Below, piece by piece: positions 38,537 to 53,941 of a stretch of DNA of 64,000 nucleotides. The notes under the pieces were generated by a model. The model ran no database searches, was not told the origin of the DNA, and was given only the letters and a program-made list of their open reading frames with translations. The stretch is taken from positions 2,240,001-2,304,000 of the forward strand of contig OZ224045.1 in NCBI GenBank assembly GCA_963665325.3. The letters are read 5' to 3'. The translations under genes were made by a program, and so were the position numbers. Position 1 is the stretch's first letter. Each line of letters begins with the position of its first letter. Source of the stretch: Alphaproteobacteria bacterium. Its GTDB lineage: Bacteria; Pseudomonadota; Alphaproteobacteria; Bin95.

Positions 38537-39124
38537 CTACAGCACCGTCACCGTCCAGCCGGCGGCCGTGCGGTCGAAGCGGAGTGGCAGGGCGTTGGGC
38601 GCGAACTCGTCGCGGAATGCGACGCCGAGGGCGGCCATGATGACACGCAGATTGCCGCCATGCGCCACGATGCAGGGAATGCCTGCGCCTTGCAGGGCAG
38701 TGGCGGCGGCGGATTTGGTGCGCGCCACGAAATCCGGCAGGGTCTCGCCGCCGGCCGGCTGCGCGCGCCAGTCGAGCTGCAGCGCACTCTGGCCGACGAG
38801 CTCGCCGAACAGCCGTTCCCCGAGCCGGGGCGTGGCGTTCATCGGCACGGCCAGTCGGCGGGTAACGGCCTGCGCGGTCTCGTAGGCGCGCGGATAACTG
38901 CTGGCCTCGATGCGCGTAATGTCTCCGGCGTCTGCCAGCCTCTCCGCGGCCCGCTCAGCCTGCGCTCGACCGGCGTGGTTCAGCGGTATGACCGGGCTTT
39001 GCACGATGAATGTGGCGTTGCCGGCAGTCTCACCGTGGCGAAGGAAGTAGAACCGCCGCGCCCCGGGCCGAAGCGCCGGCGGCGCGGCGGAAAGAGCTAT
39101 CAGCTCTTCGCCGCCCCTTATCAT
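38537..39124 (-). CDS. Histidine phosphatase family protein (start uncertain)
   Basis: FLRHGET, SS..RAYETA, E..FGE, VAHGG. Confidence 0.85.
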   Translation of the reverse strand: MIRGGEELIALSAAPPALRPGARRFYFLRHGETAGNATFIVQSPVIPLNHAGRAQAERAAERLADAGDITRIEASSYPRAYETAQAVTRRLAVPMNATPRLGERLFGELVGQSALQLDWRAQPAGGETLPDFVARTKSAAATALQGAGIPCIVAHGGNLRVIMAALGVAFRDEFAPNALPLRFDRTAAGWTVTVL

Positions 39125-39134
39125 CGCAGCCGCA

Positions 39135-40343
39135 TCAAAGCGCGCCGGCCTGCTTGAGGTCCGCCACCTCCGAGGGCGGCATGTCGAGCAGCTCGCCCAG
39201 CACCGCCTCGTTGTGCTCGCCGAGCAGCGGCGCCCGCGCCACGTCCATTGCCTCGCCGCCGAAGCGTACCGGCCAGGCCGGCACCACCACCGCGCCCCGG
39301 TCCGGATGCTCGACGGTCTGCATGATGCCTCGCCGGTGCATGTCCTCGCTGGAGATCAGGTCCTTGATGTCGAACACCGCGCCTGCGGGCACGCCCGCGC
39401 CGCCAATGGCCTCCATCACCTCCTGCTTGGTGCGCAGGCGTGTCCAGGCGGCGAGATTTTCCTCGATCTCGGCCTTGTGCTCGATGCGCTTTTGCCCGTC
39501 GCAGAAGCGTGGGTCCGCCAGCATGTCTTCGCGCCCGATGGCCTTGCAGACGCGCTCCCAATGGGCGGTCAGGTCGCGGGCGACGAAGATGAAGCAATAG
39601 TCGTTCGGCCCGCCGCCCTTGCAAGGAAACAGCCCGCCCGGCGCGCCCGAAGCCACGGAATTGCCAAGGCGCGGCGCCGGTTCCTGCATCATCGGCTGGC
39701 GCGAGAAGGTAACGCGGCAATAGTTCGTCATCGCGTCCTGCATCGCGACCTGGAGATGCTGGCCGTGACCCGTGCGCTCGCGCTGGAAGAGCGCGGAGAG
39801 GATCGAGACGCACATGTGCAGGCCCGTGCCCGTGTCGCCGATGGTGGCGCCGGGGCGGATTGGTACGCCGTCCGGCATGCCCGTGATGCTCATCACGCCG
39901 CCGGTGGCCTGGGCGATCATGTCGAAGGAGAGGTATTTGGCGTAGGGGCCGTCGGTGGCGAAGCCCTTGACCTGCGCGAAGACGAGGCGCGGATTGAGTT
40001 TCTGTAGTTCGTCCCAGCCGAAGCCCAGCCGCTCGATGGCGCCGGGCGCGAAATTCTCGATCAGCACATCCGCCTTGGCGATCAGGCGGCGCAGCAGTTC
40101 CTTGCCGCTCTCCTCCTTGAGGTTGCAGGTGATCGAGCGCTTGTTACAGTTGAGCAGGATGAAATAGAGCGAATCCATGTCCGGCCGCTCGGAAATGGCG
40201 AGCCGACCCTGGTCGCCGCGCCGGGGCTCCTCGACCTTGATGACATTGGCGCCGTGCCAAGCCAGCGCCTCCGTGCAGGACGGCCCGGCTTCGAATTGGG
40301 TCAGGTCGAGAACGGTAATGCCCGACAGCGGCGCATCGCCCAT
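39135..40343 (-). CDS. Family III CoA transferase (formyl-CoA transferase-like)
   Basis: LDLTQFEAGPSCT, NCNKRS, DVLIENF.PG, GDTGTG, APLLGEHN. Confidence 0.9.
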   Translation of the reverse strand: MGDAPLSGITVLDLTQFEAGPSCTEALAWHGANVIKVEEPRRGDQGRLAISERPDMDSLYFILLNCNKRSITCNLKEESGKELLRRLIAKADVLIENFAPGAIERLGFGWDELQKLNPRLVFAQVKGFATDGPYAKYLSFDMIAQATGGVMSITGMPDGVPIRPGATIGDTGTGLHMCVSILSALFQRERTGHGQHLQVAMQDAMTNYCRVTFSRQPMMQEPAPRLGNSVASGAPGGLFPCKGGGPNDYCFIFVARDLTAHWERVCKAIGREDMLADPRFCDGQKRIEHKAEIEENLAAWTRLRTKQEVMEAIGGAGVPAGAVFDIKDLISSEDMHRRGIMQTVEHPDRGAVVVPAWPVRFGGEAMDVARAPLLGEHNEAVLGELLDMPPSEVADLKQAGAL

Positions 40344-40370
40344 CTGTTTCCTCCTTGCTATGCTTGCCGG

Positions 40371-41711
40371 ATGATACATCAAGCCATTCGGAATGTTCTA
40401 CTGACCGGGCTCGACCCGGTCTTCCCGACGCCCTACCGCATCGGCGAAGCAGGCGCTGTCGCCATTGCTGCCTCCGCGCAGGCCGCCGCCGATTTCTGGG
40501 AGCTGCGCACGGGTGAGCGCCAGTCGGTGACGGTGGACCGCCGCCATGCGGCCGCGGCCATGCGCTCCGCCACCTATCTGAAGATAGACGGCGTTGCGCC
40601 ATCCTCGCTGTGGGACCCATTCTCGGGCCTTTACCCGACCGGCGACGGGCGCCATGTCTTCCTGCATTGCAACTTCCCCCACCACCGCAACGGCATGCTG
40701 GCGCTGCTCGGCGCGAAGGCGGAAAAGGAGGCGTTCGCGGAAGCGGTCGCGGCGCGCGGCGGGCAGGAGTTCGAGGACGCCATCGCCGCCGCCGGCCTCT
40801 GCGGCGCGATGACGCGCACGCCCGAGGAATGGGCCGCTCACCCGCACGGCCGGGCGCTTGCGGCGCTGCCGCCGGTCACGATCGAACGGATCGGCGACGG
40901 TCCGAAGATCGTGCCGCGCGGCGGCGACCGGCCGCTCGCGGGCATTCGCGTGCTGGACCTGACGCGTGTGCTGGCCGGGCCGACCTGCGGGCGCACGCTC
41001 GCCGAGCACGGCGCCGATGTAATGCGCATTGCCGGGGCCCATCTGCCTTTCGCGCCCACGCTCGTGATGGACACGGGCCACGGCAAGCTCTCCGCCTTCG
41101 TCGATCTGCGCGACGAGCGCGGCCGGGCGCAGCTTCGCACACTTGCTGCCGAGGCCGACGTGTTCGTGCAGGGCTACCGGCCGGGCACGCTCGCCGCGCG
41201 CGGCTTCGGCCCCGGCGATATCGGCCCCGGCAAGGTCTACGTCTCGCTGTCGGCCTACGGCCATGAAGGGCCGTTCGCCTCGCGCCGGGGGTTCGACAGC
41301 ATCCTGCAGAACGTCTCCGGCATGTCCACGGTGCAGGGTAGCCCGGAGGCCCCGCGCAACCTTCCCGTGCAGCCGCTGGACTATTGCGCCGGCTACCTGG
41401 CCGCATGGGGCGTCGCGACGGCCCTGCTGCGCCGTGCGGAAGAGGGCGGAAGCTGGCATGTGCAGCTCTCGCTCGCCGGCATGGCGGAATGGATCAAGGG
41501 CATGGGGCTCGTCGTAGGCTGGCAGGATGCGCCGGCGGACCTGGCGCCGGAGGAACTCGCGGCGATCGCGATGGAGAGCGACACCCCGCACGGCCGCCTG
41601 ACGCATCTGGCGCCGGTCGCGCAGATGTCCCGCACGCGGCCTTACTGGGCGCGGCCTTCCGTGCCGCTCGGCTCCAACGATCCCGTTTGGCCGGAGACGC
41701 TCGCCGCATGA
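40371..41711 (+). CDS. Family III CoA transferase (CaiB/BaiF)
   Basis: PLAGIRVLDLTRVLAGP, DTGHGK, ADVFVQGYRPG, RRGFDS. Confidence 0.88.
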   Translation: MIHQAIRNVLLTGLDPVFPTPYRIGEAGAVAIAASAQAAADFWELRTGERQSVTVDRRHAAAAMRSATYLKIDGVAPSSLWDPFSGLYPTGDGRHVFLHCNFPHHRNGMLALLGAKAEKEAFAEAVAARGGQEFEDAIAAAGLCGAMTRTPEEWAAHPHGRALAALPPVTIERIGDGPKIVPRGGDRPLAGIRVLDLTRVLAGPTCGRTLAEHGADVMRIAGAHLPFAPTLVMDTGHGKLSAFVDLRDERGRAQLRTLAAEADVFVQGYRPGTLAARGFGPGDIGPGKVYVSLSAYGHEGPFASRRGFDSILQNVSGMSTVQGSPEAPRNLPVQPLDYCAGYLAAWGVATALLRRAEEGGSWHVQLSLAGMAEWIKGMGLVVGWQDAPADLAPEELAAIAMESDTPHGRLTHLAPVAQMSRTRPYWARPSVPLGSNDPVWPETLAA

Positions 41712-42463
41712 GCCGCCTTTGCCGCGGCCCCGGCGCCGCGATCCACTATGAGACGCACGGGCACGGGCCAGCCGTGCTGCTGACCCACGGCTTCGGGCTG
41801 ACCGCGCGCATGTGGACAGGCCAGGTCGAGGCGCTTGCGGCTTCCAACCGGCTCATCCTCTGGGACCTGCGCGGGCACGGCCGCAGCGACTCGCCTGAGG
41901 ACAACGGCCTGTACGACCCCGAAGCCTGTGTCGCCGACATGCTGGCGCTTTTCGATGCAGAGGGAGTTGAGCAGGCGGTCGTTGGCGGCCTCTCGCTCGG
42001 CGGCTATCTCTCGCTGGCCTTCCACCTCCGCCACCCCGAGCGGGTGCGCGCGCTGATGCTGTTCGACTGCGGCCCTGGCTTCCGCCGCGACGAGCCGCGC
42101 GACGCTTGGAACGAGCGGGCGAAGGAGCGAGGCGAGCGGATCGCCGCCCGGGAACCGCGCGCCTTGCAGAGCCTTGAGCCGGACGGTCACCGCGACCTCG
42201 CCGGCGTCGCCCGCGCGGCTCGATACATGATGCACCACCATGACGGCAGCGTGCTGGAATCGCTGCCGTCGATCCGGGTGCCGGCCCTGGTGCTGGCCGG
42301 TGAGCGCGATATCCCCTTCCTGGCCGGCATCGACTACATGGCGCGCAAGATCCCGGACGCCCGGAAGGTTGTGCTCCCCGACGCCGGCCACATTACCAAT
42401 CTCGACAATCCCGCGGCATTCAACGCCGCAGTTTCCGGATTCCTCGCCCGACTGCCTGCATGA
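41708..42463 (+). CDS. Alpha/beta hydrolase
   Basis: LTHGFG, WDLRGHGRS, GLSLGG, GERD, AGH. Confidence 0.88.
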   Translation: MSRLCRGPGAAIHYETHGHGPAVLLTHGFGLTARMWTGQVEALAASNRLILWDLRGHGRSDSPEDNGLYDPEACVADMLALFDAEGVEQAVVGGLSLGGYLSLAFHLRHPERVRALMLFDCGPGFRRDEPRDAWNERAKERGERIAAREPRALQSLEPDGHRDLAGVARAARYMMHHHDGSVLESLPSIRVPALVLAGERDIPFLAGIDYMARKIPDARKVVLPDAGHITNLDNPAAFNAAVSGFLARLPA

Positions 42464-43674
42464 CCACACCTGTCGACAGCTTCTCCCGCGATGCGCGGGT
42501 CATCGGCCTCGTGGCCGCCGGGCACACGATGAGCCACATGTTCGTGTTCATGCTCCTGCCGCTTTCGGTCCGTATGCACGACGAGCTCGGGTTCAGCTAT
42601 CTGGATATCGGCATTCTGGCAGGCGCCTTCTCGGTGGGCGCGGCAATCTGCCAGACCGGCATCGGGTTCGTCGTGGACCGCATCGGCGGCCGTGCGCCGC
42701 TCATCCTGGGGGTCGCCGTGCTGTCCGGGGCTGTCATGGGGTTCGGGCTGGTCTCTTCCTTCTGGGCCATGCTGCCGCTCGCGGTCTTGGGCGGCATCGC
42801 CAATTCCGTCTTCCACCCCGCCGACTACGCCATCCTCTCGGCCTCCGTCGCCGAGCACCGCATGGGACGTGCCTTCTCCATCCACGCAGTCGCCGGCAAT
42901 ACCGGCTGGATCCTGGCCTTGCTCGGTCCCGACCTCGCAGACATCGTTGGCCTGAAGAACGTCTTCCTCATCGCAGGCGGCATCGGCGTCGCCGTGTCCT
43001 TCGCTCTCCTGCTCCAGTCCCGCCATCTGGAAAGCGCCGACGGCGAGGTGCAGCGGCGCGAGCAGGGCGGCTCGACCTCGGACGGGATCGCGCTGCTGCT
43101 GACCGTGCCGGTCGTGCTGCTGTTCCTGTTCCAGATGTTCCATTCCATGTCGCTTGGCGGCATACGCACCTTCGGCATCCCGGCGCTGCACGACTTGCGC
43201 GGCTTCGAGGACACGGTCCTCGCGAAGGCGCTGATCGCCTATATGGTGGCGGCCTCGGTCGGCAATCTCGCGGGCGGCTGGCTGGTGGACCGCACCGGAC
43301 GACCGCAGCTCGTATTTTTCGGTGCCATCGGCACGGTCTTCCTCACGGTCAACGTCATCGGCGCTGTCCCGCTGCCGCTCTACGGCATTGTGGCTCTGCT
43401 TCTGGTCGCCGGGGTCATGCACGGCGCGATCATGCCGACTCGCGACCTGCTGGTGCGCCGTATCTCGCCGCCGGGGCAGATGGGCAAGGTGTTCGGCTTC
43501 ACCTCCACCGGGCTGTCCATAGGAGGCTTCATGACTCCGGTCTTGTTCGGGTGGGTGATGGATATGGGCGACCCGCGCTGGGTGTTCTTCGGCAGCGCGG
43601 CGGTCATGCTGCTCGCTGTCGCCACCTTCGTCGAAACCAGCCGCAATGCGGGCAGAGCAAGGGTAACGGCATGA
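42460..43674 (+). CDS. MFS transporter
   Basis: GHTMSH, GFVVDRIG, NSVFHPADY, about 12 TM helices. Confidence 0.88.
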   Translation: MTTPVDSFSRDARVIGLVAAGHTMSHMFVFMLLPLSVRMHDELGFSYLDIGILAGAFSVGAAICQTGIGFVVDRIGGRAPLILGVAVLSGAVMGFGLVSSFWAMLPLAVLGGIANSVFHPADYAILSASVAEHRMGRAFSIHAVAGNTGWILALLGPDLADIVGLKNVFLIAGGIGVAVSFALLLQSRHLESADGEVQRREQGGSTSDGIALLLTVPVVLLFLFQMFHSMSLGGIRTFGIPALHDLRGFEDTVLAKALIAYMVAASVGNLAGGWLVDRTGRPQLVFFGAIGTVFLTVNVIGAVPLPLYGIVALLLVAGVMHGAIMPTRDLLVRRISPPGQMGKVFGFTSTGLSIGGFMTPVLFGWVMDMGDPRWVFFGSAAVMLLAVATFVETSRNAGRARVTA

Positions 43675-44546
43675 AACAGCTTCCGTCAGGCGACGATCTT
43701 TTCCTGGATCATGTCGGCTATTTCCTCACCGACCTCGAAGGGGCGGCGACGCGATTCGAGCGGCTGGGCTTCACCGTGTCGCCGATCAACATCCACTACA
43801 ACAGCGCCGACGGCGAGCTGGTGCGCTCGGGTACCGCCAACCGGCTCATCACCTTCGAGGCGGGCTATATCGAGGCGCTCGGCCAGGTCACCGATACGCC
43901 GCTCGGCGCGGAACTTGCCTCGGGCGTGGCGCGCTATGAAGGACTGCACCTGATCGCGCTCGCGCATGGACGGGTCGCGGAGCACAATGTCGGCGGCACG
44001 GCGATGCGCCCGACGGTCTTTCTGCGCCGCCCGCTGGAGGACGGACGCATCGTGCGGGCCACCGTGCGCCGGGCGACGGCCGGGGCGATGCCGGAAGGCC
44101 GCGTGCAGCTCCTGACGCACGAGACGCCAGAGTTGATCTGGCTGCCGGGAATGGACCGCCACGCCAATGCCGCGCGCGCGCTCACCGGCTACCTGCAAAT
44201 GGTCGCCGACCCGGAAGAGGCCGCTGAGCGCTACGCCCGCTTCGCGGGCCGCCCTGCCCGCAAGCTGGGGCCGGTGTTCGAGATCGCGCTCGACCGGGGA
44301 TGCTTCGCGCTCGCCGGCCCAGATGCGCTCGGCGCGCTATTGCCGGATACGACGCACCCGCCACCGCCCTTCGGCGCCGCAGTCGGCATAGAAAGCGCCG
44401 ATCTGGATCGCACGCGCTTCCTCCTCGCAAACGCGGGCATCACCATCCATGGGCGGCCGGACCGCCTGTTGGTCCCGCCGCAGGAGGGGCTGGGCGCCTG
44501 GATCGACTTCCACCGCCCCGGCGCCCCACCGCTGTGGGCTGCATGA
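43671..44546 (+). CDS. VOC / glyoxalase-like domain protein
   Basis: LDHVG, LGFTV, GTANRLI.F..GYIE, HAN.ARAL. Confidence 0.82.
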   Translation: MKQLPSGDDLFLDHVGYFLTDLEGAATRFERLGFTVSPINIHYNSADGELVRSGTANRLITFEAGYIEALGQVTDTPLGAELASGVARYEGLHLIALAHGRVAEHNVGGTAMRPTVFLRRPLEDGRIVRATVRRATAGAMPEGRVQLLTHETPELIWLPGMDRHANAARALTGYLQMVADPEEAAERYARFAGRPARKLGPVFEIALDRGCFALAGPDALGALLPDTTHPPPPFGAAVGIESADLDRTRFLLANAGITIHGRPDRLLVPPQEGLGAWIDFHRPGAPPLWAA

Positions 44547-45141
44547 CCGGTCCAATGGCCGCAGGAGCATTCGTTCGCTAGTTATGAAAATTTTCTGATT
44601 TTAGACTTGACCTCACTGGACCTGTAGTGCCAGTGTGTTCATCCCGCTCCGCATGTCCGTCACACGCGTCGCAAGCCAGACCCGCGCCCCGCTCGGCACC
44701 GGGATCGTCGCCGCTCCAGAGCCCCCCAGAACACGCGACTGCGTGGCCGCGTCCACATCCCGGTCGACTTTCACGCGCGAGCCGTCCGCCAGGGTAATTT
44801 AGATCCGCCCGGAGGCAGACGGTTCGATATCCGGCGGCGCCGGCAGCAGCTTCACCGGCGACGCCCTTTCCGTTGAAGAGACAACCACCGGGGCGAAGCC
44901 GCCCAACACGCGCACTCTCCCCGATCCCCGACAAAAGCCACAGGAGGCCTACCTCGGAGACTTACGGCGAAGACGCAGATCGTGTCCCGGGGAGAGGGTA
45001 ACCACCCGGTGAAGGCCGCAGGCTATACGGCCTCCATCGGATGCTCGCCCCGAATTTGCCATCGGCACCGCTTTGCCGGTATCTATCGGGCAAATCGGCG
45101 ATTGGGAAAAACCTGAGGTCAGTACAGGCGGGAAGGGCGCG

Positions 45142-47217
45142 ATGCCGCAGAACACTGTAGCCCCCGATGCTTTGGCCTCCCCGACAGCGGATGTAGCAAG
45201 GACGACAGAGCCTTCCTTCCGGAACGCCCTGCCCCATTTCCTGCCGCTCGCGATCTTTCCGCTGATTTTTCTGGCCCTGCTCCACGGCGGCTGGTGGATC
45301 GTCGCCCCCTTCGTCTTCTTCATGCTCGCGGGGCCGCTGGACATTGCATTCGGCGACGACGAACGGAACATGGACCCCTTCAAGACGCCTGAGAAGCGCT
45401 TGTTCTGGCACAATCTGCCGGTCTGGTTCTGGGCCTTCCTCTGGCCGCCGATTCTCGTGTTCGGGCTCTGGCAGATCCTCGTCGCCGGCCAATTCTCGCT
45501 CTGGGAGTGCATTTTGCTGGCGGTCGTGCTGACGGGCGAGGCGCAGGCTGTCTTCATCGTCGGCCACGAATTGATCCACCGGCGCTCGACATGGGAGCGC
45601 CGCCTCGGCGAGTTCCTGCTCGCGTCCGCCTCCTATCCGCAATACGCCACGGAGCACATCTATATCCATCACGCCATGGTCGGAACGCCGATGGATGTTG
45701 GGTCCGCACCCAAGGGCATGAGTTTCTGGCGTTATTTCCCGAGGGAAGTAGCGAGCAACCTGACGGGCTCGTGGCGCGTTGCCCGCGAGCGGCTGGCGCG
45801 CCGCGGACTGCCGGCCTGGCACTATGACAACCAGTTCTGGCGCTACGGTCTGGAGACCTTGTTCTGGTATGGGCTGGTGTTCTGGATGGGCGGCCCGTGG
45901 GCGGTTCTGGCTTACGCCGTGCTCTGCCTCGGCACCGTTTTCTCAATGAAAATCAGCAACTACATGCAGCATTACGGGTTGCGCCGGGTCCGCCGGCCCA
46001 ACGGGCGGTTCGAGAAAGTCCAGCCCCGGCATTCGTGGAATGCCAACTACAAGTTCGGCAACTGGATGTTCTACAACATGCAGCGGCATCCCGATCACCA
46101 TGCAGCGGCCAGCCGGCAGTATCCGCTGCTGCAGCAGCGCGGCGCCGATGAGTCGCCACAGCTTCCCGGCAGCTATGCCCAGATGTTCAACCTAGCTGTG
46201 CGTCCGCGGCGCTGGTTCGAGAAGATGGACCCGCTCGTCGACGAATGGCGGGCGCAGTTCTATCCCGATATCGACGACTGGAGCGCCTATGACAGCCCGG
46301 TCTCGGCGGCGCGCCCGGAAGCGTTCGACGCGATTGTCGAGATTTTCGGCGCTGCGCCGCGCCTCGCCGCATGGATCGAACGCAACCCGGAGCTGCTGGA
46401 CAGTCTGAAGGATCGGGAGTTCACCGATCTCGACCTGCCGAAAGGCTTCGGACCCGACTCCCGATCCGAGGCGGTTGCGCGGCGCGGTCTGACGCGCCTC
46501 TACTGGACGCGCGAGTTCGGCGCCGCCGAAATGAAGGAGCGGCTTGCCGAAATCCCCGCCCAGGACGCCGCCGACACTGCGGAGACCGTGCGCAACTGGT
46601 CGAACGACAAGGCCTTCCAGGTCGGAATGCACATCTTGCGGGGCAACCTGTCTCCGGCCGAAGCGGGCGTTGCGCTGTCCAGCCTTGCCGAAGCCTCGAT
46701 CTCGACGGTGCTTGCCGCGGTCGCAGATGAGTTCGCCGACCGGCGCAGCCGGGACGGCGATAGCGGCGTCGCAGCGGTCCTGGTCGGCGATTTGGCGAGC
46801 GGGGAAGCGGCGCCCGGCGCGTGTATCGATATCCTGTTCGTTTACGATGGCGGCCGCCCGGCCGACCATGAGACGTTATGCGGACGTTTCAATGCGGCGC
46901 TGGCGGGGCTTTCGAACGACAGCCTGCTTTTTGCGGCGCCGCCGCACGACTGGCAAGGGGGCGTTGCGCTACCGCTTTGCGACCTGGAGGACTATTGCGG
47001 GCAGGCCATCTCTTCCAGCGAAGGGTCGGACCTAGACCGGGTTCGTTGCATATTCGAGACTGGTGAAATCGGGCTCGGCGTCCGCGTTCGGGACATCCAT
47101 AGCCGTGTTCTGGCCGAATGCGGCGCGGAGGCTGTGCAAAGCGTCGGTTTGCGAATTCCGGCTCAATCATTCGGCAGGCCCACGCCGCAAATTGGAAGGC
47201 GCGCTGGGCCGCGGTGA
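45142..47217 (+). CDS. AlkB-like membrane di-iron monooxygenase/desaturase fused to a degenerate GlnE-like nucleotidyltransferase domain
   Basis: His boxes HELIH, EHIYIHH, NYMQHYG, QRHPDHH; C-terminal IFGAAPRLA..., LSSLAEA, GDLASGE...IDILFVYD. Confidence 0.82.
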   Translation: MPQNTVAPDALASPTADVARTTEPSFRNALPHFLPLAIFPLIFLALLHGGWWIVAPFVFFMLAGPLDIAFGDDERNMDPFKTPEKRLFWHNLPVWFWAFLWPPILVFGLWQILVAGQFSLWECILLAVVLTGEAQAVFIVGHELIHRRSTWERRLGEFLLASASYPQYATEHIYIHHAMVGTPMDVGSAPKGMSFWRYFPREVASNLTGSWRVARERLARRGLPAWHYDNQFWRYGLETLFWYGLVFWMGGPWAVLAYAVLCLGTVFSMKISNYMQHYGLRRVRRPNGRFEKVQPRHSWNANYKFGNWMFYNMQRHPDHHAAASRQYPLLQQRGADESPQLPGSYAQMFNLAVRPRRWFEKMDPLVDEWRAQFYPDIDDWSAYDSPVSAARPEAFDAIVEIFGAAPRLAAWIERNPELLDSLKDREFTDLDLPKGFGPDSRSEAVARRGLTRLYWTREFGAAEMKERLAEIPAQDAADTAETVRNWSNDKAFQVGMHILRGNLSPAEAGVALSSLAEASISTVLAAVADEFADRRSRDGDSGVAAVLVGDLASGEAAPGACIDILFVYDGGRPADHETLCGRFNAALAGLSNDSLLFAAPPHDWQGGVALPLCDLEDYCGQAISSSEGSDLDRVRCIFETGEIGLGVRVRDIHSRVLAECGAEAVQSVGLRIPAQSFGRPTPQIGRRAGPR

Positions 47218-47312
47218 TGCGGGCAGCACCCGATCTGTCCGTTCACCAGCGCTTCGTCGCCAGGTTCCCCCGCGCTGTTATGGACCCCGGTTCTGAAATG
47301 AGCCATGACGGC

Positions 47313-47603
47313 GGCGGTTGCGTTCGAGACCCGTCTTGAGGCCTCACGCCACGATGCCGCCAACGACAATGCCGAACACCGCATCGGCCTCACCCTGACC
47401 GCGCGATGGTGACCTGCCGGCGGCCATAGCGGTTGTCGCGGGCGGCGCGGATCGCTGGCCGGGTCGCCGGAACGAAGCGTCCATTCGCCCGAGCAATCTC
47501 GCCCGCACGAGCAAAATCCCTTTACCAGCCCGAATTCGACAAATTTTCCCCCCCATTTCCTCCCGTTTGGGAGGCTCACTGATATTCAAAAATTACATAA
47601 ATT
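47313..47603 (+). repeat. Junction unit copy 1: orphan adhesin barrel tail (...EHRIGLTLTARW*) + conserved spacer + promoter
   Basis: 47313-47412 matches 58348-58447 with one mismatch seen; downstream spacer similar to copies 2 and 3. Confidence 0.88.
47559..47603 (+). promoter_or_regulatory. Palindrome plus -35/-10 promoter, copy 1
   Basis: CCTCCC-GTTT-GGGAGG, CTCACT, 17 bp, TAAATT. Confidence 0.6.
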
Positions 47604-47649
47604 GCGCCCCGACAACAAGAGTTGTCGCGAGGCAAATGGGGGCTTCGAG

Positions 47650-50598
47650 ATGGGGATTTCCTGGTTCGGCCTGCGTTCTCTCGCAGCCGTGCTGCTGCTC
47701 GTTTACGCCGCGCTGGTCGCGGCGCCGACGCCTGTCCGAGCGCAGAACACCTGCCCCGAGCCCGACGACATCTGGTGCGCCACCCTGACGGTGGCGGAAC
47801 TGGAAGTTGGTTCACTTACGTTTGGGTTTGGATACAACATAAATATAGGAGGGGCATTGTCGCACGACGAGTTCAGGTATGAAGGCACGGACTATACGGT
47901 TGCCCTCGTAAATATCACGCGTTTTGTAAATCCCTCTCTGCAAATTCAGTTTGCCCCAACCGGCGAGACGGTTTTCGGCACGGATGGCCTCCTTCTCTAC
48001 GTCGACGGGACGCCGTTCGCGTTTGACGACGCGGAATTTACAAGCAATCAGTTCATATGGGGCAATTCCGGCCTGAGCTGGGCCGTCGGCGCCACCGTCG
48101 AGGTCAGGCTGACCAAGGCGCCCGAGCCCGGCGGATCCCTCCAGGGTCAGCCGCAGATCGTGTTCGCCGCGAACTCGGGCTCGTCGGAGCCGGCGGCGCG
48201 TTGTCTCGGCGCTCCCTATGAGTTCAGGCGTTGGGCAAACCGGCCGGGAGGGATACCCGGGACGACGTGGACCCTGGACGTCGTGGAGCCGTCGGGCGGG
48301 TTTCGCAACGGAGCCAGCTTCACCGCGGACGACTTCGAAATCTCCGACGGCCAGGTCAAGACCATAGCGGAGGTGAACTATCCGAATCAGGAAAACACCT
48401 CGAACGTTCAGCCATTCGAGATGGTCATCACCGCTGTGGGCGAAGGTGTAACCAGGAGCCGTACGGTACGGGTGTACATCCTCAAGTCGGATCGCACGGA
48501 TCATTCCTCGCTCAACGTCTGCGGCCAGGCCGCGGGGGAGGGGGCCAAACGACCGCGATTGTCGGTGGCGGACGCTGAGGCGTATGAGGGTATCGACTCA
48601 CATTTGAAATTCCGGCTGCGCCTCAACAGGCCGGCACCCGTGCCGATAAGCGTGGCCTACTGGACGTACCAAGGCACGGCGACCCGTGGGACTGACTACA
48701 ACGAGGTCCCCAAGAAGACAGTGACCTTCGAGGTGGACGAGCAGTTCAAGGAGGTCCTCGTGGCGATCCTCGCTGACGACGAGGCAGACGACGGCGAGAC
48801 GGTGATTCTCGAACTGGCCGAACTGAGTGAGAATGCGAACTATGGCCGGTCCCGTGCCACAGGCACCATTCGCGATGCGCCGACCGGTCCGTCGACACTC
48901 TACGTGAGAAATACCAGAGCGGAAGAATTCGACGAGAAAATGGAATTCGTTGTCAGCTTGTACCCGCCATCGAATGGGGTAGTCACGGTGAATTATACTA
49001 CCGCCGACGGCACCGCCGAAGCAGGCTTCGACTACACGACCAGATCGGGCACGTTGACTTTCGGAGTGGGCGAGACGCACAAGACAATTACTGTGCCGAT
49101 CACAGACGATACACTCGAAGAATCCGACCCCTTCGAGTTTTTCTTTTTGAACCTGACCGATCCGAGTGGCGCCACATTTGAGCGCGGCGTTACTTCCTGG
49201 ACAGCCAATGGCATCATTGAAAATCATGAAACCGAAGAGAACTCCTCCGCTGTCTCGTCCGAAATCGCGGACGAACCGCTGACGGCGGAATTCACCGGCG
49301 TGCCGGACGAGCATGACGGCTCAAGCGCGTTCACCTTCCGGATCGCCTTCAGCGAGGACATCCGCAATAGCTACCGCAGGGTCCGCGACGACCTGCTTGC
49401 GGCCACCGGCGGAACGGTCACCGGCGCACGCCGCGTGGACGGGCGACGCGACCTGTGGGAGATCGAGGTAGATCCGTCCGGCAGCGACGGCGTGACGGTG
49501 ACGCTTGCCGCGGGGGACAGTTGCGCGACGGCGCCCTGCACAAGCGACGGCCGAACGCTTTCGCAGGCAATCACGGCCACCATCGAGGGCCCGCCCCTTC
49601 CCGGGCTCTCGGTGGCGGATGCGCAGGTCGAGGAAGGCCCGGGCGCGAAGCTCGGCTTTGCAATCACGCTCGATCGTGCGGTCGCGTGGACGGTGACGGT
49701 GCAGGCGGCGACGTCGGACGGGACAGCCGTCGCAGGCGAGGACTATCGGGCGAAGACCCTGACCAAGACCTTCGCCCCGGGCGAGACGAGGAAGGTTGCG
49801 GTGATACGGGTGCTCGAGGACGGCCATGACGACGACGGCGAGACGCTGACGCTGACGCTGTCGAACCCGTCGGGGGCCTTTATCTCCGACGGCACGGCGA
49901 CGGGGACCATCACGAACTCGGATCCGCTCCAGAAGATGTGGCTCGCGCGGTTCGGGCGCACGGTGGCCCTCCAGACCGTCAAGGCTCTGGAGGGGCGCTT
50001 CGCCATCGGGTCGGACGCCTCGCCGCGCATGACGATGACGGTGGCAGGCCAGAGCATGGACCTCTCGCGGATCGGCGACGACAAGGCGCTGGCGGAGACG
50101 ATAACGGGGCTTGCGCAGGCGTTCGGCGCGCCGGGTGCGCCGGCGGCGAACGACAACGATCCGTTTGCGCGGCACGGCTTCGGCGAGGCCGGCAACGGGG
50201 CCGTCGCCTCGGCGCCGGCGCAGCCGGTTACGGGGCGCGATCTTCTGCTCGGGAGTTCGTTCCACTTCACGACCGGCGAGGCGTCGGGCCTGGGGGGCGC
50301 GATGACCGGCTGGGGCAAGGTGCTGTCGGGCGGGTCGAGCAGTTCGTTTGGCGGCGGGCTGTCGTTTACGAGCGAGACGGCGACCGGCGTGCTCGGCATG
50401 GACTGGGAGCGGGACAGGCTCCTGGTCGGAGTGGCGCTGTCGCGGAGTGTCGAGAAGGGCAGCGCGGCGTTCGATCGGACGGGTCTGCAATATGACATCG
50501 AGGGCTCGCTCTCGATGGTGACGCCCTATATGCGCGTGCGCGCCGGCGAGCGGCTGTCGTTCTGGAGCGCGGTCGGTTCGGGCAGCGGCTCCATGTGA
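47650..50598 (+). pseudogene. Large autotransporter-like adhesin with Calx-beta repeats, 5' part, truncated by transposon insertion
   Basis: Signal peptide (…TPVRA/Q), Calx-beta motifs (TADGTAEAGFDY..TLTF), WLARFGRTVA, start of beta-barrel; stop TGA is the first 3 nt of the inserted element. Confidence 0.85.
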
Positions 50599-50841
50599 GT
50601 GTGCTCTCGGTATCTGATGGCGGGATGGTCACGTTGTTCGATGGTTTTCAGGCGTCGGGCCGGGCGTGACGGCGGGGGTGTCGGACGGCCGTCGGCGCGT
50701 CAAGCCGCTTCGCGGCTCCTGCGCTGCGCTCCGGCCCTTCGGGTGACCCGCCGCCGTCCCTCCGACGGAGTGCATCCATGGCCGTAAGCAAGCTTCCGGC
50801 CACGGGCCGGCCGCTTTACGCAGTGTGACAATGGGAGCGGT

Positions 50842-50860
50842 GTTACCCGTTACCGTTACC
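50842..50860. repeat. GTTACC x3 iteron-like repeats, with inverted GGTAAC copies at 52958 and 52971
   Basis: GTTACC at 50842, 50849 and 50855. Confidence 0.7.
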
Positions 50861-50872
50861 CTCTCTCCCTAG

Positions 50873-52942
50873 CCCAAGTTTAACAGAGCATTTTGAAGAT
50901 CATTGATTATCAATGCCTTACGGAGCAATAATTTCGCGTCTGGCACTACATTTCGGTTATTTCGCCCGGTTCGGGATCAGACGATCATTTTCCTGATGCC
51001 TCCAGGGGCGGGGTCGATGCCGAGCGCGCGATAGATTTCTTGCTGTTCGGGCTCGGCCCGTGTGGCCTTGCGGACATGCAAGGTGCGTCCGTCCTTGCGC
51101 CTGAAGGTCGCGGTGACCCGCTGCTGGCCTTCGAGGATGGCTCGCAGGCTGGCCCAGCTGGCGTGTTCGCCGTGCTCGGCGAGGCGCCGGCGGATGGTCT
51201 GCACCATCTGGTAGGCGATCACGGTGATGAACAGGTGGCCGTCGGAGCGCCTCTGGGTCTGGTGGAAGATGGGGCGCAGGCCGAGTTCCGACTTGAGCGA
51301 TCGGAACACCGCCTCCACATCGGTGAGCGAGGTATAGGTCCGCCACAGCGCCTCCTCGTCCCAGTCCTCGACGTTGGTGCGCAGGCAGTAAACGCCGGGA
51401 TGGGTGGCCATGGTGCCGGCGAGCGGGCGGCGCTCCCATGTGACGGCCCGGGCCTTCTCGCCGCTTTCGTCGGCGATGACGTCGATGTCGTAGTGGGCCG
51501 CGGCGCCGCGGCTCTTCTCCCTGATCCGGCCGATCCGCTGCCAGACATGGTCGAGCCGCTTGCGGGTGCGCGGCCGCTTGAGGCCGTCGTGGAGCTTCTG
51601 CATCTCGCCCTCGAAGCGCGCGGCGAAGCGGTTTGCGATGCCCTGTTCCTTCTTCGCCCGCGCCTCGGAGTAGCAGTAGAGCCGCGCCTCTCCAGCTTCG
51701 GCGTCGACCGCCTTGTGGACATGGACCGTCTGGCGCGACCGGGTCTCGATGGCCAGCGCCAGCTCGGGATCGAAGCGGCGGGTGCGTTCCCGGCTGACCG
51801 CGAGATAGCGGTAGCCGTTCGCGCGCAGCCAGGCGATGTTGGCCTCGGTGGCGATCCCCGCATCCATCACCACCAGCGCGTCCGCCGGCGCGCCCAGGGC
51901 GCCGAGCATCGACGCCAGGGTCCTGTCTTCGTTGACCGCGCCCGAGAACACCTCGGAGCGGCGCACGAAGCCCGAGCCGTCGAGCACCAGCCCCAGGGTC
52001 AAGAGCGGGCAATCCGAGCGCTTCTCCTTGGAATGGCCGCGTTCGGCCTTGGCCTGGGCCGCCGCCGCGCCCTCGAAGAAGGTGTTGGTCAGGTCGTACA
52101 GCGTCACCGTGTGGCGCAGGCCGAACAGATCCGTCGCCCGATCGAACAGATGCGCCTCGATCGCCGCGCGCTGCGCCATCAGGGCGTCGGAGGCGCGGTA
52201 CAGGCGCATCATGCTCATGCGCTCGAAGTCCACCCCCAGCAACTCGCCGAGCGCCGAACGCTCGCACAGCCAGCGCCAGGAGGCGCGCTCCGAGCCCGGC
52301 GCCGCCATGCGCGCGATCACGGTGGCCATGGCGAGCGCGCGCTGCGTGCCGTTGAAGCCCAGGCGCTCCAGCAAAGCCTCCAGGCCGAGCCGCTCCATGG
52401 CCCACAGCCCGACATGCTCGACGCCGACCGAACGCGGGCGGATCAGCTCCAGGGAGCCGACATCCACCGTCTGCAGGTCAGGGCGCCCGGTCCCGCCGGA
52501 CGGCGCGCTGTTGAGCAATTGCGCGGCGATGCGCTGGGCGTGCCGCTCGACCTCCTCCGGACAGGACAGCGAAACCAGCTCGGCCTGGCGGTCGAGCTGC
52601 TGCTGGATCCGGCTGCACAGCACCGCCCAGTGCCGCCGCTCGACAGGGAAGTCGCTCCCCAGGTTGAGCAGGGTGCGCTGGCGGATCTTCCCGCCGTCGC
52701 GCTCCGAGCGAACAAGGCGATGGGAATAATAGACCTCGCCGCGCTCGCCGGTTCCGGTCCTGGTGCGGCGAATGAACATGGCGCACAGCATAGGAGCGGG
52801 CGCAAGGTCTCGAAATCCCCAAGTGAAAATATTATGGCACTACATTGCGCCCCCGGAAACCTCAATCCAGCAATATCAATGGCTTGATGACACCGCGCCG
52901 GCCAACCTCGACAAAATCGGCCACCAAAACGTTAAACTTGGG
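50873..52942 (-). mobile_element. IS1634-family insertion sequence (2070 bp)
   Basis: Terminal IRs CCCAAGTTTAAC / GTTAAACTTGGG; CTAG duplicated at 50869-50872 and 52943-52946. Confidence 0.88.
50977..52779 (-). CDS. IS1634-family transposase
   Basis: MFIRRT...RQRTLLNLG, LYDLTNTFFEG, GHSKEKRSD, VMDAG, VEAVFRSLKSELGLRPIFH. Confidence 0.9.
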   Translation of the reverse strand: MFIRRTRTGTGERGEVYYSHRLVRSERDGGKIRQRTLLNLGSDFPVERRHWAVLCSRIQQQLDRQAELVSLSCPEEVERHAQRIAAQLLNSAPSGGTGRPDLQTVDVGSLELIRPRSVGVEHVGLWAMERLGLEALLERLGFNGTQRALAMATVIARMAAPGSERASWRWLCERSALGELLGVDFERMSMMRLYRASDALMAQRAAIEAHLFDRATDLFGLRHTVTLYDLTNTFFEGAAAAQAKAERGHSKEKRSDCPLLTLGLVLDGSGFVRRSEVFSGAVNEDRTLASMLGALGAPADALVVMDAGIATEANIAWLRANGYRYLAVSRERTRRFDPELALAIETRSRQTVHVHKAVDAEAGEARLYCYSEARAKKEQGIANRFAARFEGEMQKLHDGLKRPRTRKRLDHVWQRIGRIREKSRGAAAHYDIDVIADESGEKARAVTWERRPLAGTMATHPGVYCLRTNVEDWDEEALWRTYTSLTDVEAVFRSLKSELGLRPIFHQTQRRSDGHLFITVIAYQMVQTIRRRLAEHGEHASWASLRAILEGQQRVTATFRRKDGRTLHVRKATRAEPEQQEIYRALGIDPAPGGIRKMIV

Positions 52943-53941
52943 CTAGGGGTTCGAGGCGGTAACGGTTTTCGGTAACGTGTCCCTGCGGTCGTTGCCGTTG
53001 AGGGCGGCGAGGCGGTATCCGCCTTCGGATGCGCGCTCGACGCGTCCTTCGCGGACGAGCCTGTGCAGCGCCTCGGCGACGGTTGCGGGCCGGGTTGCCG
53101 CGCGCTCGCGGATCCGGCGCTGGGAGAGCGGCGCGTCGGCGTCGGCGAGGGCCTGCAGGATGCGCCGTTCGGGGGTATCCGGCTCCGGCGCCTGGTCTTC
53201 CGGCGTCTCGCGCAACCGCAGGGCGGGGCGCTCGTCGTCGTCGGCGAGTTCGATCTCGAGGTCTTCGAGGCCAGGGGCGTCGCGATGCTCGACGGTCATG
53301 AGGATCTGGCGGTCTCGCCGGCGCAGGTACAGATTCGAATCGCCCCAGGCGTGAAGTTCGCTGCTGCCGCGCAGCGCCTGCCCGGGCCGGGAGCCGCCGC
53401 TCTTTCGTGCGTGATGGACGAGGAGGACGGCGGTTTCGAAGCGGCGCTGTATGTCGCGCAGGAAGCCCAGCATGGGGGCGACCTCGGCGACGGTATTTTC
53501 GTCGACGCCGTGCAGGCGCACGAGGGGGTCGAGGACGACGAGGCGGGGTGAGACGCGCTCCACCGTCTCGACCAGGCGCTGGCGATCGGCGCGATGGTCG
53601 AGACGCAGCGTGGGCACGTCGATGACGGCGATGTCGAGGGTCTCGAACGCGGTGCCTGCCGCCTTTGCGATGCCCTGGAGGCGTGCGCGCACGATATGGC
53701 CGGCGTCCTCGGCGGCGAACAGCAGCACGGGGCCGCTTGCGGCGGGACGGAAGTGGCGCAGGCAGGGGACGCCGGCGGCGACCGCGACGGCGATGTCGAG
53801 TGCGAGGAAGGATTTGCCGCACTTGGGCTCGCCGCCGACGATGCCGACGCCCTGCTCGGACCACAACGCCTCGACCATCCAGCGGCGCGCCTGGGGGCGC
53901 TCTTCGAGCTCCGCCGGCGCCCGTGTCGGGAAGCCCTTCAC
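52943..53941 (-). CDS. AAA_25 / RepA(RSF1010)-like RecA-fold ATPase with C-terminal HTH
   Basis: GTGA coupling; GGEPKCGKS, FAAED, VVLDPL, LVHHARK, LRGSSELHAWGD; C-terminal winged-HTH-like segment. Confidence 0.85.
   Translation of the reverse strand: MKGFPTRAPAELEERPQARRWMVEALWSEQGVGIVGGEPKCGKSFLALDIAVAVAAGVPCLRHFRPAASGPVLLFAAEDAGHIVRARLQGIAKAAGTAFETLDIAVIDVPTLRLDHRADRQRLVETVERVSPRLVVLDPLVRLHGVDENTVAEVAPMLGFLRDIQRRFETAVLLVHHARKSGGSRPGQALRGSSELHAWGDSNLYLRRRDRQILMTVEHRDAPGLEDLEIELADDDERPALRLRETPEDQAPEPDTPERRILQALADADAPLSQRRIRERAATRPATVAEALHRLVREGRVERASEGGYRLAALNGNDRRDTLPKTVTASNP

Follow-up and report, generated by a model that had tools for sequence, protein, structure and literature searches.

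An apparently truncated and orphaned AlkB/GlnE-like fusion gene, and its full-length relatives in srp-type peptide clusters

The window analyzed here is a 64,000-nucleotide (nt) stretch of an Alphaproteobacteria bacterium genome (GenBank assembly GCA_963665325.3, contig OZ224045.1, positions 2,240,001 to 2,304,000 of the forward strand), and the gene under study occupies positions 45142–47217 of it. On balance, and with some reserve, we regard this gene as a 3′-truncated, orphaned copy of a conserved fusion gene of ~800 amino acids (aa), in which an AlkB-type hydroxylase is joined to one nucleotidyltransferase (NTase) half of GlnE. In relatives, the fusion is linked to srp (sponge-derived proteusin) clusters, which make peptides synthesized ribosomally and modified post-translationally (RiPPs); the window copy would be a probably horizontally acquired remnant of such a cluster. 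What is new is that AlkB is fused to a partner domain not described before, within clusters of a known type. A first-pass annotation of the window, made from the sequence alone, had recognized the fusion and missed both the 3′ truncation and the srp context of the relatives.

The window gene joins an AlkB core to a GlnE-like domain

The features of the gene and its immediate flanks are as follows.

45038–45141 (+): upstream leader conserved with relatives (blastn similarity to the L009 DNA begins at 45038, and to other relatives at 45053–45070)
45142–47217 (+): open frame of the truncated AlkB/pseudo-GlnE fusion, stop-free, 691 aa
45142–46296 (+): AlkB-type membrane diiron hydroxylase domain, residues 1–385 (Pfam; match of the relative P0002 to 8f6t_A)
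45565–45582 (+): AlkB-type His motif HELIHR
45652–45672 (+): AlkB-type His motif EHIYIHH
45958–45981 (+): AlkB-type His motif NYMQHYGL
46078–46104 (+): AlkB-type His motif MQRHPDHHA
46297–47151 (+): region like a GlnE adenylyltransferase half, residues 386–670, with an N-terminal helical part and the NTase sheet (Pfam, alignment with own GlnEs, fold match of a full-length relative)
46786–46848 (+): degenerate NTase motif GDLASGEAAPGACIDILFVYD, in which Cys561 (46822–46824) replaces the first catalytic Asp
47152–47217 (+): 21-residue tail unrelated to the family (47152–47214) and stop codon; breakpoint at 47153/47154
47313–47610 (+): repeated leader upstream of genes in a multi-copy Calx-beta family (blastn against the own genome)

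The earlier annotation had described a single continuous frame of 691 aa, four AlkB-type His boxes and a GlnE-like C-terminal region, and all three were recovered. Translation of 45142–47217 is free of stops, each His box could be placed by coordinates, and both of the Pfam domains proposed for checking scored above cut-off: FA_desaturase (PF00487) at residues 121–349 (E = 1.4e-25; score 91 bits, cut-off 29.7) and GlnE (PF03710) at residues 461–573 (E = 5.8e-8; score 32.9 bits, cut-off 24). In NCBIfam, GlnE models alone matched, all far under cut-off (56.7 versus 724). All nine His ligands are present in the window protein, and they are invariant across a 60-member family alignment.

Among full-length relatives, P0002 (810 aa) is the nearest; in an alignment of residues 1–682, it and the window protein share 96% identity. 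The N-terminal part of P0002 matched solved AlkB structures in a PDB sequence search (8f6t_A, E = 1.9e-50, residues 42–367; 8sbb_A, 1.9e-41). An AlphaFold2 model was built for P0002, rather than for the window protein, from the 60-sequence family alignment (predicted local distance difference test [pLDDT] 72.3; predicted template modeling score [pTM] 0.68). The model has six long helices (26–47, 51–70, 84–113, 120–145, 231–250, and 252–277), and in this check, of a kind that the annotation had proposed, both folds were recovered. A Foldseek search of the PDB found 8f6t and 8sbb for the N-terminal part and the E. coli GlnE domains 1v4a (4.4e-8) and 3k7d (1.3e-7) for the C-terminal part, together with a weak match to the AMPylation domain of DrrA/SidM (E = 5e-3). 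These data identify the N-terminal 385 aa of the window protein as a predicted intact AlkB-type, six-helix diiron oxygenase core.

The GlnE-like half has lost its catalytic site and is maintained

The genome that holds the window (G000) has two real glnE-type genes: a canonical copy on contig C1 (C1:630097-632979) and a paralog at C3:553338-556832. Identity of the fused domain to the second GlnE half is 40% for the C3 paralog and 30% for the C1 gene, and the domain has in common with the C3 paralog an insert of ~50 aa (…DFTDLDLP…) that is absent from the canonical GlnE. The shared insert and the higher identity indicate that the fused module originated in the lineage of that GlnE paralog, from its adenylylating half; by these alignments, the rest of the fusion, after residue 385, goes back to a GlnE paralog's second half, the adenylylating one. 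Only one GlnE half is present in the fusion, not the two tandem NTase halves (~950 aa) of GlnE. The C3 paralog itself is the longer of the two genomic copies, with a stop-to-stop frame of 1165 aa; its second half keeps the DxD motif and reads RIDMRPRETG where canonical GlnE reads EIDLRLRPSG. Paralogs of the C3 type occur in all same-genus genomes searched, as the 38%–40% matches.

The NTase columns were counted over 108 sequences (the window protein and 107 family members no shorter than 760 aa), aligned with the two own GlnE halves. Cys561 of the window protein aligns with the first catalytic Asp of both own GlnEs, so the substitution noted in the first-pass annotation stands. Across the family, this column holds Ala in 78 sequences, Glu in 10, Asp, Ser, and Thr in 4 each, Pro in 3, and other residues in 5 (Cys in the window protein). 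The second catalytic column holds Asp in 78, Glu in 21, Arg in 6, Ala in 2, and His in 1. The third Asp, with its flanking xIDx segment (the hDhRLRP strand of GlnE), is deleted in all 108 sequences, and the Gly of the G-S motif is replaced by Ala in all 108, which bears out the suspicion that the adenylyltransferase domain is inactive.

The same annotation had called for a selection test on the C-terminal domain. Pairwise ratios of nonsynonymous to synonymous substitution rates (dN/dS; Nei-Gojobori method, NG86) for seven gene pairs were 0.11–0.19 for the AlkB part, 0.21–0.33 for the GlnE-like part (residues 386–670), and 0.36–0.50 for the last 140 aa; the value for the GlnE-like part is that of purifying selection. 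Loss of the NTase site in a domain that is nevertheless maintained is the signature of a pseudo-enzyme domain with another role. On sequence grounds, the GlnE-like half is such a domain: its NTase catalytic set has been lost family-wide, and it is kept under purifying selection.

The window copy lacks the 3′ end of the family gene

The window protein diverges from P0002 after residue 670 and ends after 21 unrelated residues; P0002 runs 140 aa further. At the DNA level, similarity to the full-length L009 gene was 93.3% over 45038–47153 (blastn), and other relatives gave the same limits or less. What the window copy lacks is the helical subdomain at the C terminus, whose helices run from 682 to 798 in the P0002 model; this subdomain contains nine invariant family positions (G690, G691, A699, L728, L738, G740, L744, L775, and A783 in P0002 numbering), and it was not found elsewhere in the own genome. 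In nine same-genus genomes (G005–G011, G013, and G015), matches span from residue 1–2 to residue 794–810 of 810, and G002 covers the full fusion in two adjacent frames; the window match ends at 689 of 810.

Contigs of 815, 680, and 583 nt (46591–47405, 46591–47270, and 46670–47252) from runs X1, X3, and X5 of two studies cross the junction at 47153/47154 with 0 differences, although one of these three runs may be the assembly's own source. Contigs of run X6 end short of 47154 and are given no weight, and the public runs listed included none of RNA. Beyond the junction, the leader at 47313–47610 marks unrelated DNA that is now joined to the truncated gene. It has 10 other matches in the own genome at 75%–97%, several of which overlap parts of the same copies. 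The open reading frame (ORF) at 47602–50598 (998 aa) encodes a Calx-beta protein with three Calx-beta domains (match 1.7e-43); the idea that this downstream ORF was a real glnE was rejected on this account. The break was likely caused by a rearrangement in this stretch, which is rich in repeats and insertion sequences (ISs).

The fusion is a large family

At E ≤ 1e-3, the C-terminal region matched 651 proteins. Among the best 120 of these, precomputed Pfam lists gave PF00487 together with PF03710 in 104, PF00487 only in 13, and PF03710 only in three short ones; the modal length of the family is 798 aa. When window residues 386–670 were compared with 50%-identity representatives, 504 matched at E ≤ 1e-3 and 42 at E ≤ 1e-30, with real GlnEs (~950–1000 aa) further down the ranking of the 504. 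A search for the same fusion elsewhere, which the first-pass annotation had proposed, thus shows that it is not unique. The source and title names of members include Rhodospirillaceae, Thalassobaculaceae, Paracoccaceae, Defluviicoccus, Nitrospira, Acidobacteriia, Chromatiales, and "Porisulfidus" metagenome-assembled genomes, which indicates that the family crosses phyla. An AlkB-GlnE fusion is not named in the literature searched; the original srp description (JACS 2021) lies outside that search and may name it.

Divergent paralogs with both domains and 35%–37% identity were seen at G005:C3:1868270-1870678, G005:C1:1037288-1039696, and G013:C5:539871-541643. They sit in open frames of ~1120–1190 aa, and their sequences suggest a second subfamily with extra sequence. 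In G002, of the same genus, the fusion (C187:11268-13651) is in two overlapping frames split at the domain boundary (residues 1–374 and 371–794), which could be either a frameshift or a natural division into two proteins.

Full-length relatives lie in srp-type clusters

Gene context was compared over 33 loci from species-representative genomes. At least one srp component was found within 10 kb of the full-length gene in 28 of them, and the recurrent neighbors were as follows.

17 of 33 loci: ~790-aa protein combining a TOMM (thiazole/oxazole-modified microcin) leader-binding region with a SagD-type YcaO (SrpC-like), mostly directly downstream of the fusion
14 of 33 loci: 375-aa protein of no known family (unk375)
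13 of 33 loci: Trp-halogenase homolog
12 of 33 loci: MMPL/RND transporter
10 of 33 loci: C39-peptidase ABC exporter
9 of 33 loci: S-adenosylmethionine (SAM) methyltransferases
8 of 33 loci: LolA-like protein
6 of 33 loci: FAD_binding_4 oxidase

The ~790-aa YcaO protein matched TIGR03882 (1.1e-43), TIGR03604 (261 bits against a cut-off of 219), and Pfam YcaO (2.2e-94). In relatives, the full-length fusion is the first gene of an operon with this SrpC-like fused YcaO cyclodehydratase. SrpE-like precursors of 77–84 aa with a nitrile-hydratase-like leader were found in 12 of the 33 loci; their leaders end in …EEQLEAISAG and are followed by cores of LCCCGI/V/L, LCCCW, or LSCCL/V. According to the accessible parts of the published accounts of srp clusters in sponge microbiomes, the SrpE core is LCCCW, the YcaO protein SrpC forms thiazolines, and SrpI brominates the C-terminal Trp (PMC10858898, PMC10286304, bioRxiv 10.1101/2023.06.09.544420, PMC9426513). 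By gene content and core sequence, the clusters of the relatives match these published clusters, as far as those parts describe them.

Precursors with LCCCW cores (L010, L017, L026, and L027) have a halogenase homolog nearby in three of four cases, the exception being L027, and those with LCCCG[ILV] cores (L012, L014, L023, L028, and L041) have none within the DNA examined. The pairing of LCCCW with a halogenase fits bromination by SrpI of the Trp at the C terminus. Seven of the 33 loci also have, near the fusion, proteins of 434–458 aa (six of 434 aa and one of 458 aa) in which a leader of the NHLP (nitrile hydratase-like leader peptide) type is fused to a large domain; these are L015 (7913–9328, −), L010, L016, L017, L021, L027, and L035. 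The large domain has a weak squalene-cyclase-like repeat match and a conserved GAWHCIRFNTAD motif. The 375-aa protein, exemplified by L009:14818-15942 (+), had no sequence match in Pfam, NCBIfam, or the PDB; the protein atlas gave a weak lead alone, to ABBA-type aromatic prenyltransferases (score 0.88–0.90). A 195-aa conserved protein gave nothing significant in Pfam or PDB sequence searches. No SagB-type oxidase was seen in the srp-type clusters of the relatives.

The window genome has the gene without its partners

Within the genus, a SrpC-like YcaO was found in 13 of 16 other species, G012, G014, and G016 being those in which it was not found, and it immediately adjoins the fusion in 12 of these 13 genomes. 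The window genome, which is 100% complete by marker genes, is the only member of the genus with the fusion but without the YcaO. Homologs of the YcaO, the halogenase, the 375-aa partner, c41, and c23 were all searched for in the window genome, and none was found. A precursor, YcaO, and/or halogenase thus stands alongside the gene in relatives but not alongside the window gene.

The fusion gene is 93% identical to that of L009, 82% to that of L034, and 78% to that of L028. The core block just upstream of it in the window (39000–44550, with CoA-transferases, a hydrolase, a major facilitator superfamily [MFS] transporter, and a glyoxalase-like gene) shows 91% identity in the L034 genome and 88% in the L028 genome, far from their fusion genes, and has no counterpart in the genome of L009. 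Similarly, for the housekeeping glnE, the L028 genome holds a counterpart of 82% identity, and that of L009 gave no match at E ≤ 1e-50. This discordance between the identity of the gene and that of the core block and glnE points to horizontal acquisition of the fusion gene, or of a cluster that has since been lost.

Proposed role and alternatives

In its native setting, the full-length fusion would be a membrane-anchored oxygenase of the srp pathway that hydroxylates or desaturates either the small, hydrophobic L-C-C-C core or an attached group. The dead GlnE-like domain would have a docking or regulatory function without catalysis and would face the cytoplasm, in the place that rubredoxin takes in AlkB-rubredoxin fusions. 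Native GlnE halves recognize a protein substrate, and so, by analogy, a recognition role for the dead domain is plausible. Complex prediction with residues 380–808 of the L028 fusion and its SrpE-like precursor gave a score of 0.00, which counts neither way. A more specific form of the proposal is possible but doubtful: full-length members may be the first AlkB-type membrane diiron enzymes in RiPP tailoring, oxidizing the srp core by hydroxylation of Leu1 or of an attached group, or by desaturation of thiazoline to thiazole, with the dead GlnE half as a new recognition module for the NHLP leader or the YcaO partner that replaces the RiPP recognition element (RRE). The window copy would be what is left of an srp fragment that arrived by horizontal transfer and was broken by a rearrangement amid ISs and repeats, and as such would be unable to do the pathway job and at most an orphan AlkB.

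Several observations weigh against this account. Adjacency of genes does not prove a shared pathway, and the role given to the fusion is predicted from sequence. Five of the 33 loci (L029–L032 and L038) had no srp component within the DNA examined, although two of these are cut by contig ends. G003 has a YcaO in an srp-like cluster without the fusion. Its three adjacent precursors have the cores FTSVGGPIW, FTTGNNPLW, and YSFNEPW, without a Leu-Cys-Cys start; as a single case, the absence of the fusion alongside different cores is suggestive only. Neither rubredoxin nor another electron donor was found among the conserved neighbors, and one rubredoxin gene lies far off in the own genome. The available parts of the published srp descriptions examined do not mention a desaturase, AlkB, or GlnE-like gene, and the original JACS 2021 description, outside that scope, may list one. 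Finally, the window frame is open, and comparison with L009 gives dN/dS values of 0.11 for the AlkB part and 0.25 for the GlnE-like part, no higher than for intact pairs, so decay is not demonstrated.

The last of these points also favors the alternative that the 691-aa protein works in its shortened form, as an AlkB whose accessory domain has been trimmed and which has been kept for a use of its own, for example alkane or lipid hydroxylation. All nine His are retained in the open frame, the dN/dS values resemble those of intact pairs, the same allele is present in contigs of runs from two studies, and a rubredoxin gene exists in the genome. Against this, the protein is without the 140-aa subdomain that holds invariant family residues, all operon partners are missing from the genome, and pairwise dN/dS mostly reflects history before the break. 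We consider a functional shortened variant unlikely, and prefer to read the window copy as a truncated remnant.

The first-pass annotation had gone further and suggested a repurposed regulatory or ligand-binding domain that links hydroxylation to nitrogen or nucleotide status. A dead but maintained domain is what was found; the link to nitrogen is unsupported. The adenylylating half of GlnE is regulated by nitrogen signals, the fused domain descends from that half, and its dN/dS shows that it is conserved, all of which would suit a sensor that binds PII, glutamine, or ATP. However, no nitrogen-regulation genes (glnA, glnB, or others) were found among the conserved neighbors in the 33 loci, the context is one of RiPP biosynthesis and export, and the ATP-handling motif is degenerate. 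Such a sensor is quite improbable.

It is more improbable still that the domain retains nucleotidyltransferase activity through a non-canonical site and AMPylates a partner or the precursor peptide. An acidic residue persists at the second position (Asp or Glu in 99 of 108), and several residues in its surroundings (A552, S553, and P558) do not vary, but the first Asp is Ala in 78 of 108 sequences and otherwise variable, G-S has become A-S, and the third Asp is deleted with its strand segment throughout. An assembly or gene-calling artifact, for which the wealth of repeats and IS copies in the region might argue, is scarcely credible, given that the fusion is a single frame in dozens of independent genomes and that the truncation junction is bridged without differences in the three runs, even if one is the source of the assembly.

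Comparison with known systems

AlkB enzymes are known for hydroxylating alkanes, with rubredoxin as the electron donor. The fusion family shares its catalytic core, His motifs, and fold with the AlkB-rubredoxin fusion of Fontimonas thermophila (8f6t, 8sbb), and, as in 8f6t, the extra domain is fused at the C terminus, on the cytoplasmic side. Unlike in 8f6t, the fused domain is a GlnE-derived pseudo-NTase rather than a redox carrier, no rubredoxin or reductase is encoded nearby in the family loci, and the context is a RiPP cluster rather than alkane catabolism. With GlnE (E. coli 1v4a and 3k7d, and the own copies), the C-terminal domain has a common profile and fold, and with the C3 paralog a common insert; it differs in being one half only, in the loss of the catalytic Asp set and of G-S, and in its fusion to a membrane enzyme, and the window protein is also without the C-terminal helical subdomain. 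Reuse of a GlnE-like fold outside nitrogen control is known from DrrA/SidM (6yx5, 3nku), the weak fold match mentioned above, although DrrA, unlike the fusion family, keeps its active site. As for the srp clusters, to the extent that the accessible accounts describe them, the relatives of the window gene adjoin the SrpC-like YcaO, NHLP precursors (e.g., LCCCW), halogenases, and C39-ABC exporters, whereas the window genome holds the truncated gene only, with no srp partners.

The srp clusters of sponge symbionts are widely distributed and highly transcribed. A large, conserved family that couples AlkB to a dead GlnE half in such clusters points to an unassigned step of the srp pathway and to a new use of a pseudo-adenylyltransferase domain, and the family merits experimental attention more than the window copy does. 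For the window genome, the gene would document the loss of such a cluster with one truncated gene left behind, in a region shaped by ISs and repeated Calx-beta genes; it also shows cleanly, in a natural case, a point at which the fusion can be cut.

Repeats and other features of the flanks

Upstream of the gene, a short dispersed repeat (44611–44859) lies in the 600-bp gap, with three other copies in the own genome (78%–89%) and one in the genome of L009. No Rfam family was found in 44000–48000 and no inverted repeats in 44540–45060, and promoter and terminator scans of the window flanks were at chance level.

Downstream, the Calx-beta leader (47313–47610) and the 3′ part of the Calx-beta gene (49278–50596) recur at several places within ~50 kb, suggesting that the Calx-beta genes are a locally amplified family. 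A 277-bp repeat (50596–50872) with at least 12 genome copies at 100% or near-100% identity directly abuts an IS and may be a miniature inverted-repeat transposable element (MITE) or a separate IS end. The IS itself (50867–52945, 2.08 kb) carries a DDE_Tnp_1 transposase ORF (50977–52791, −) and occurs at least five more times in contig C1, with 99.95% identity.

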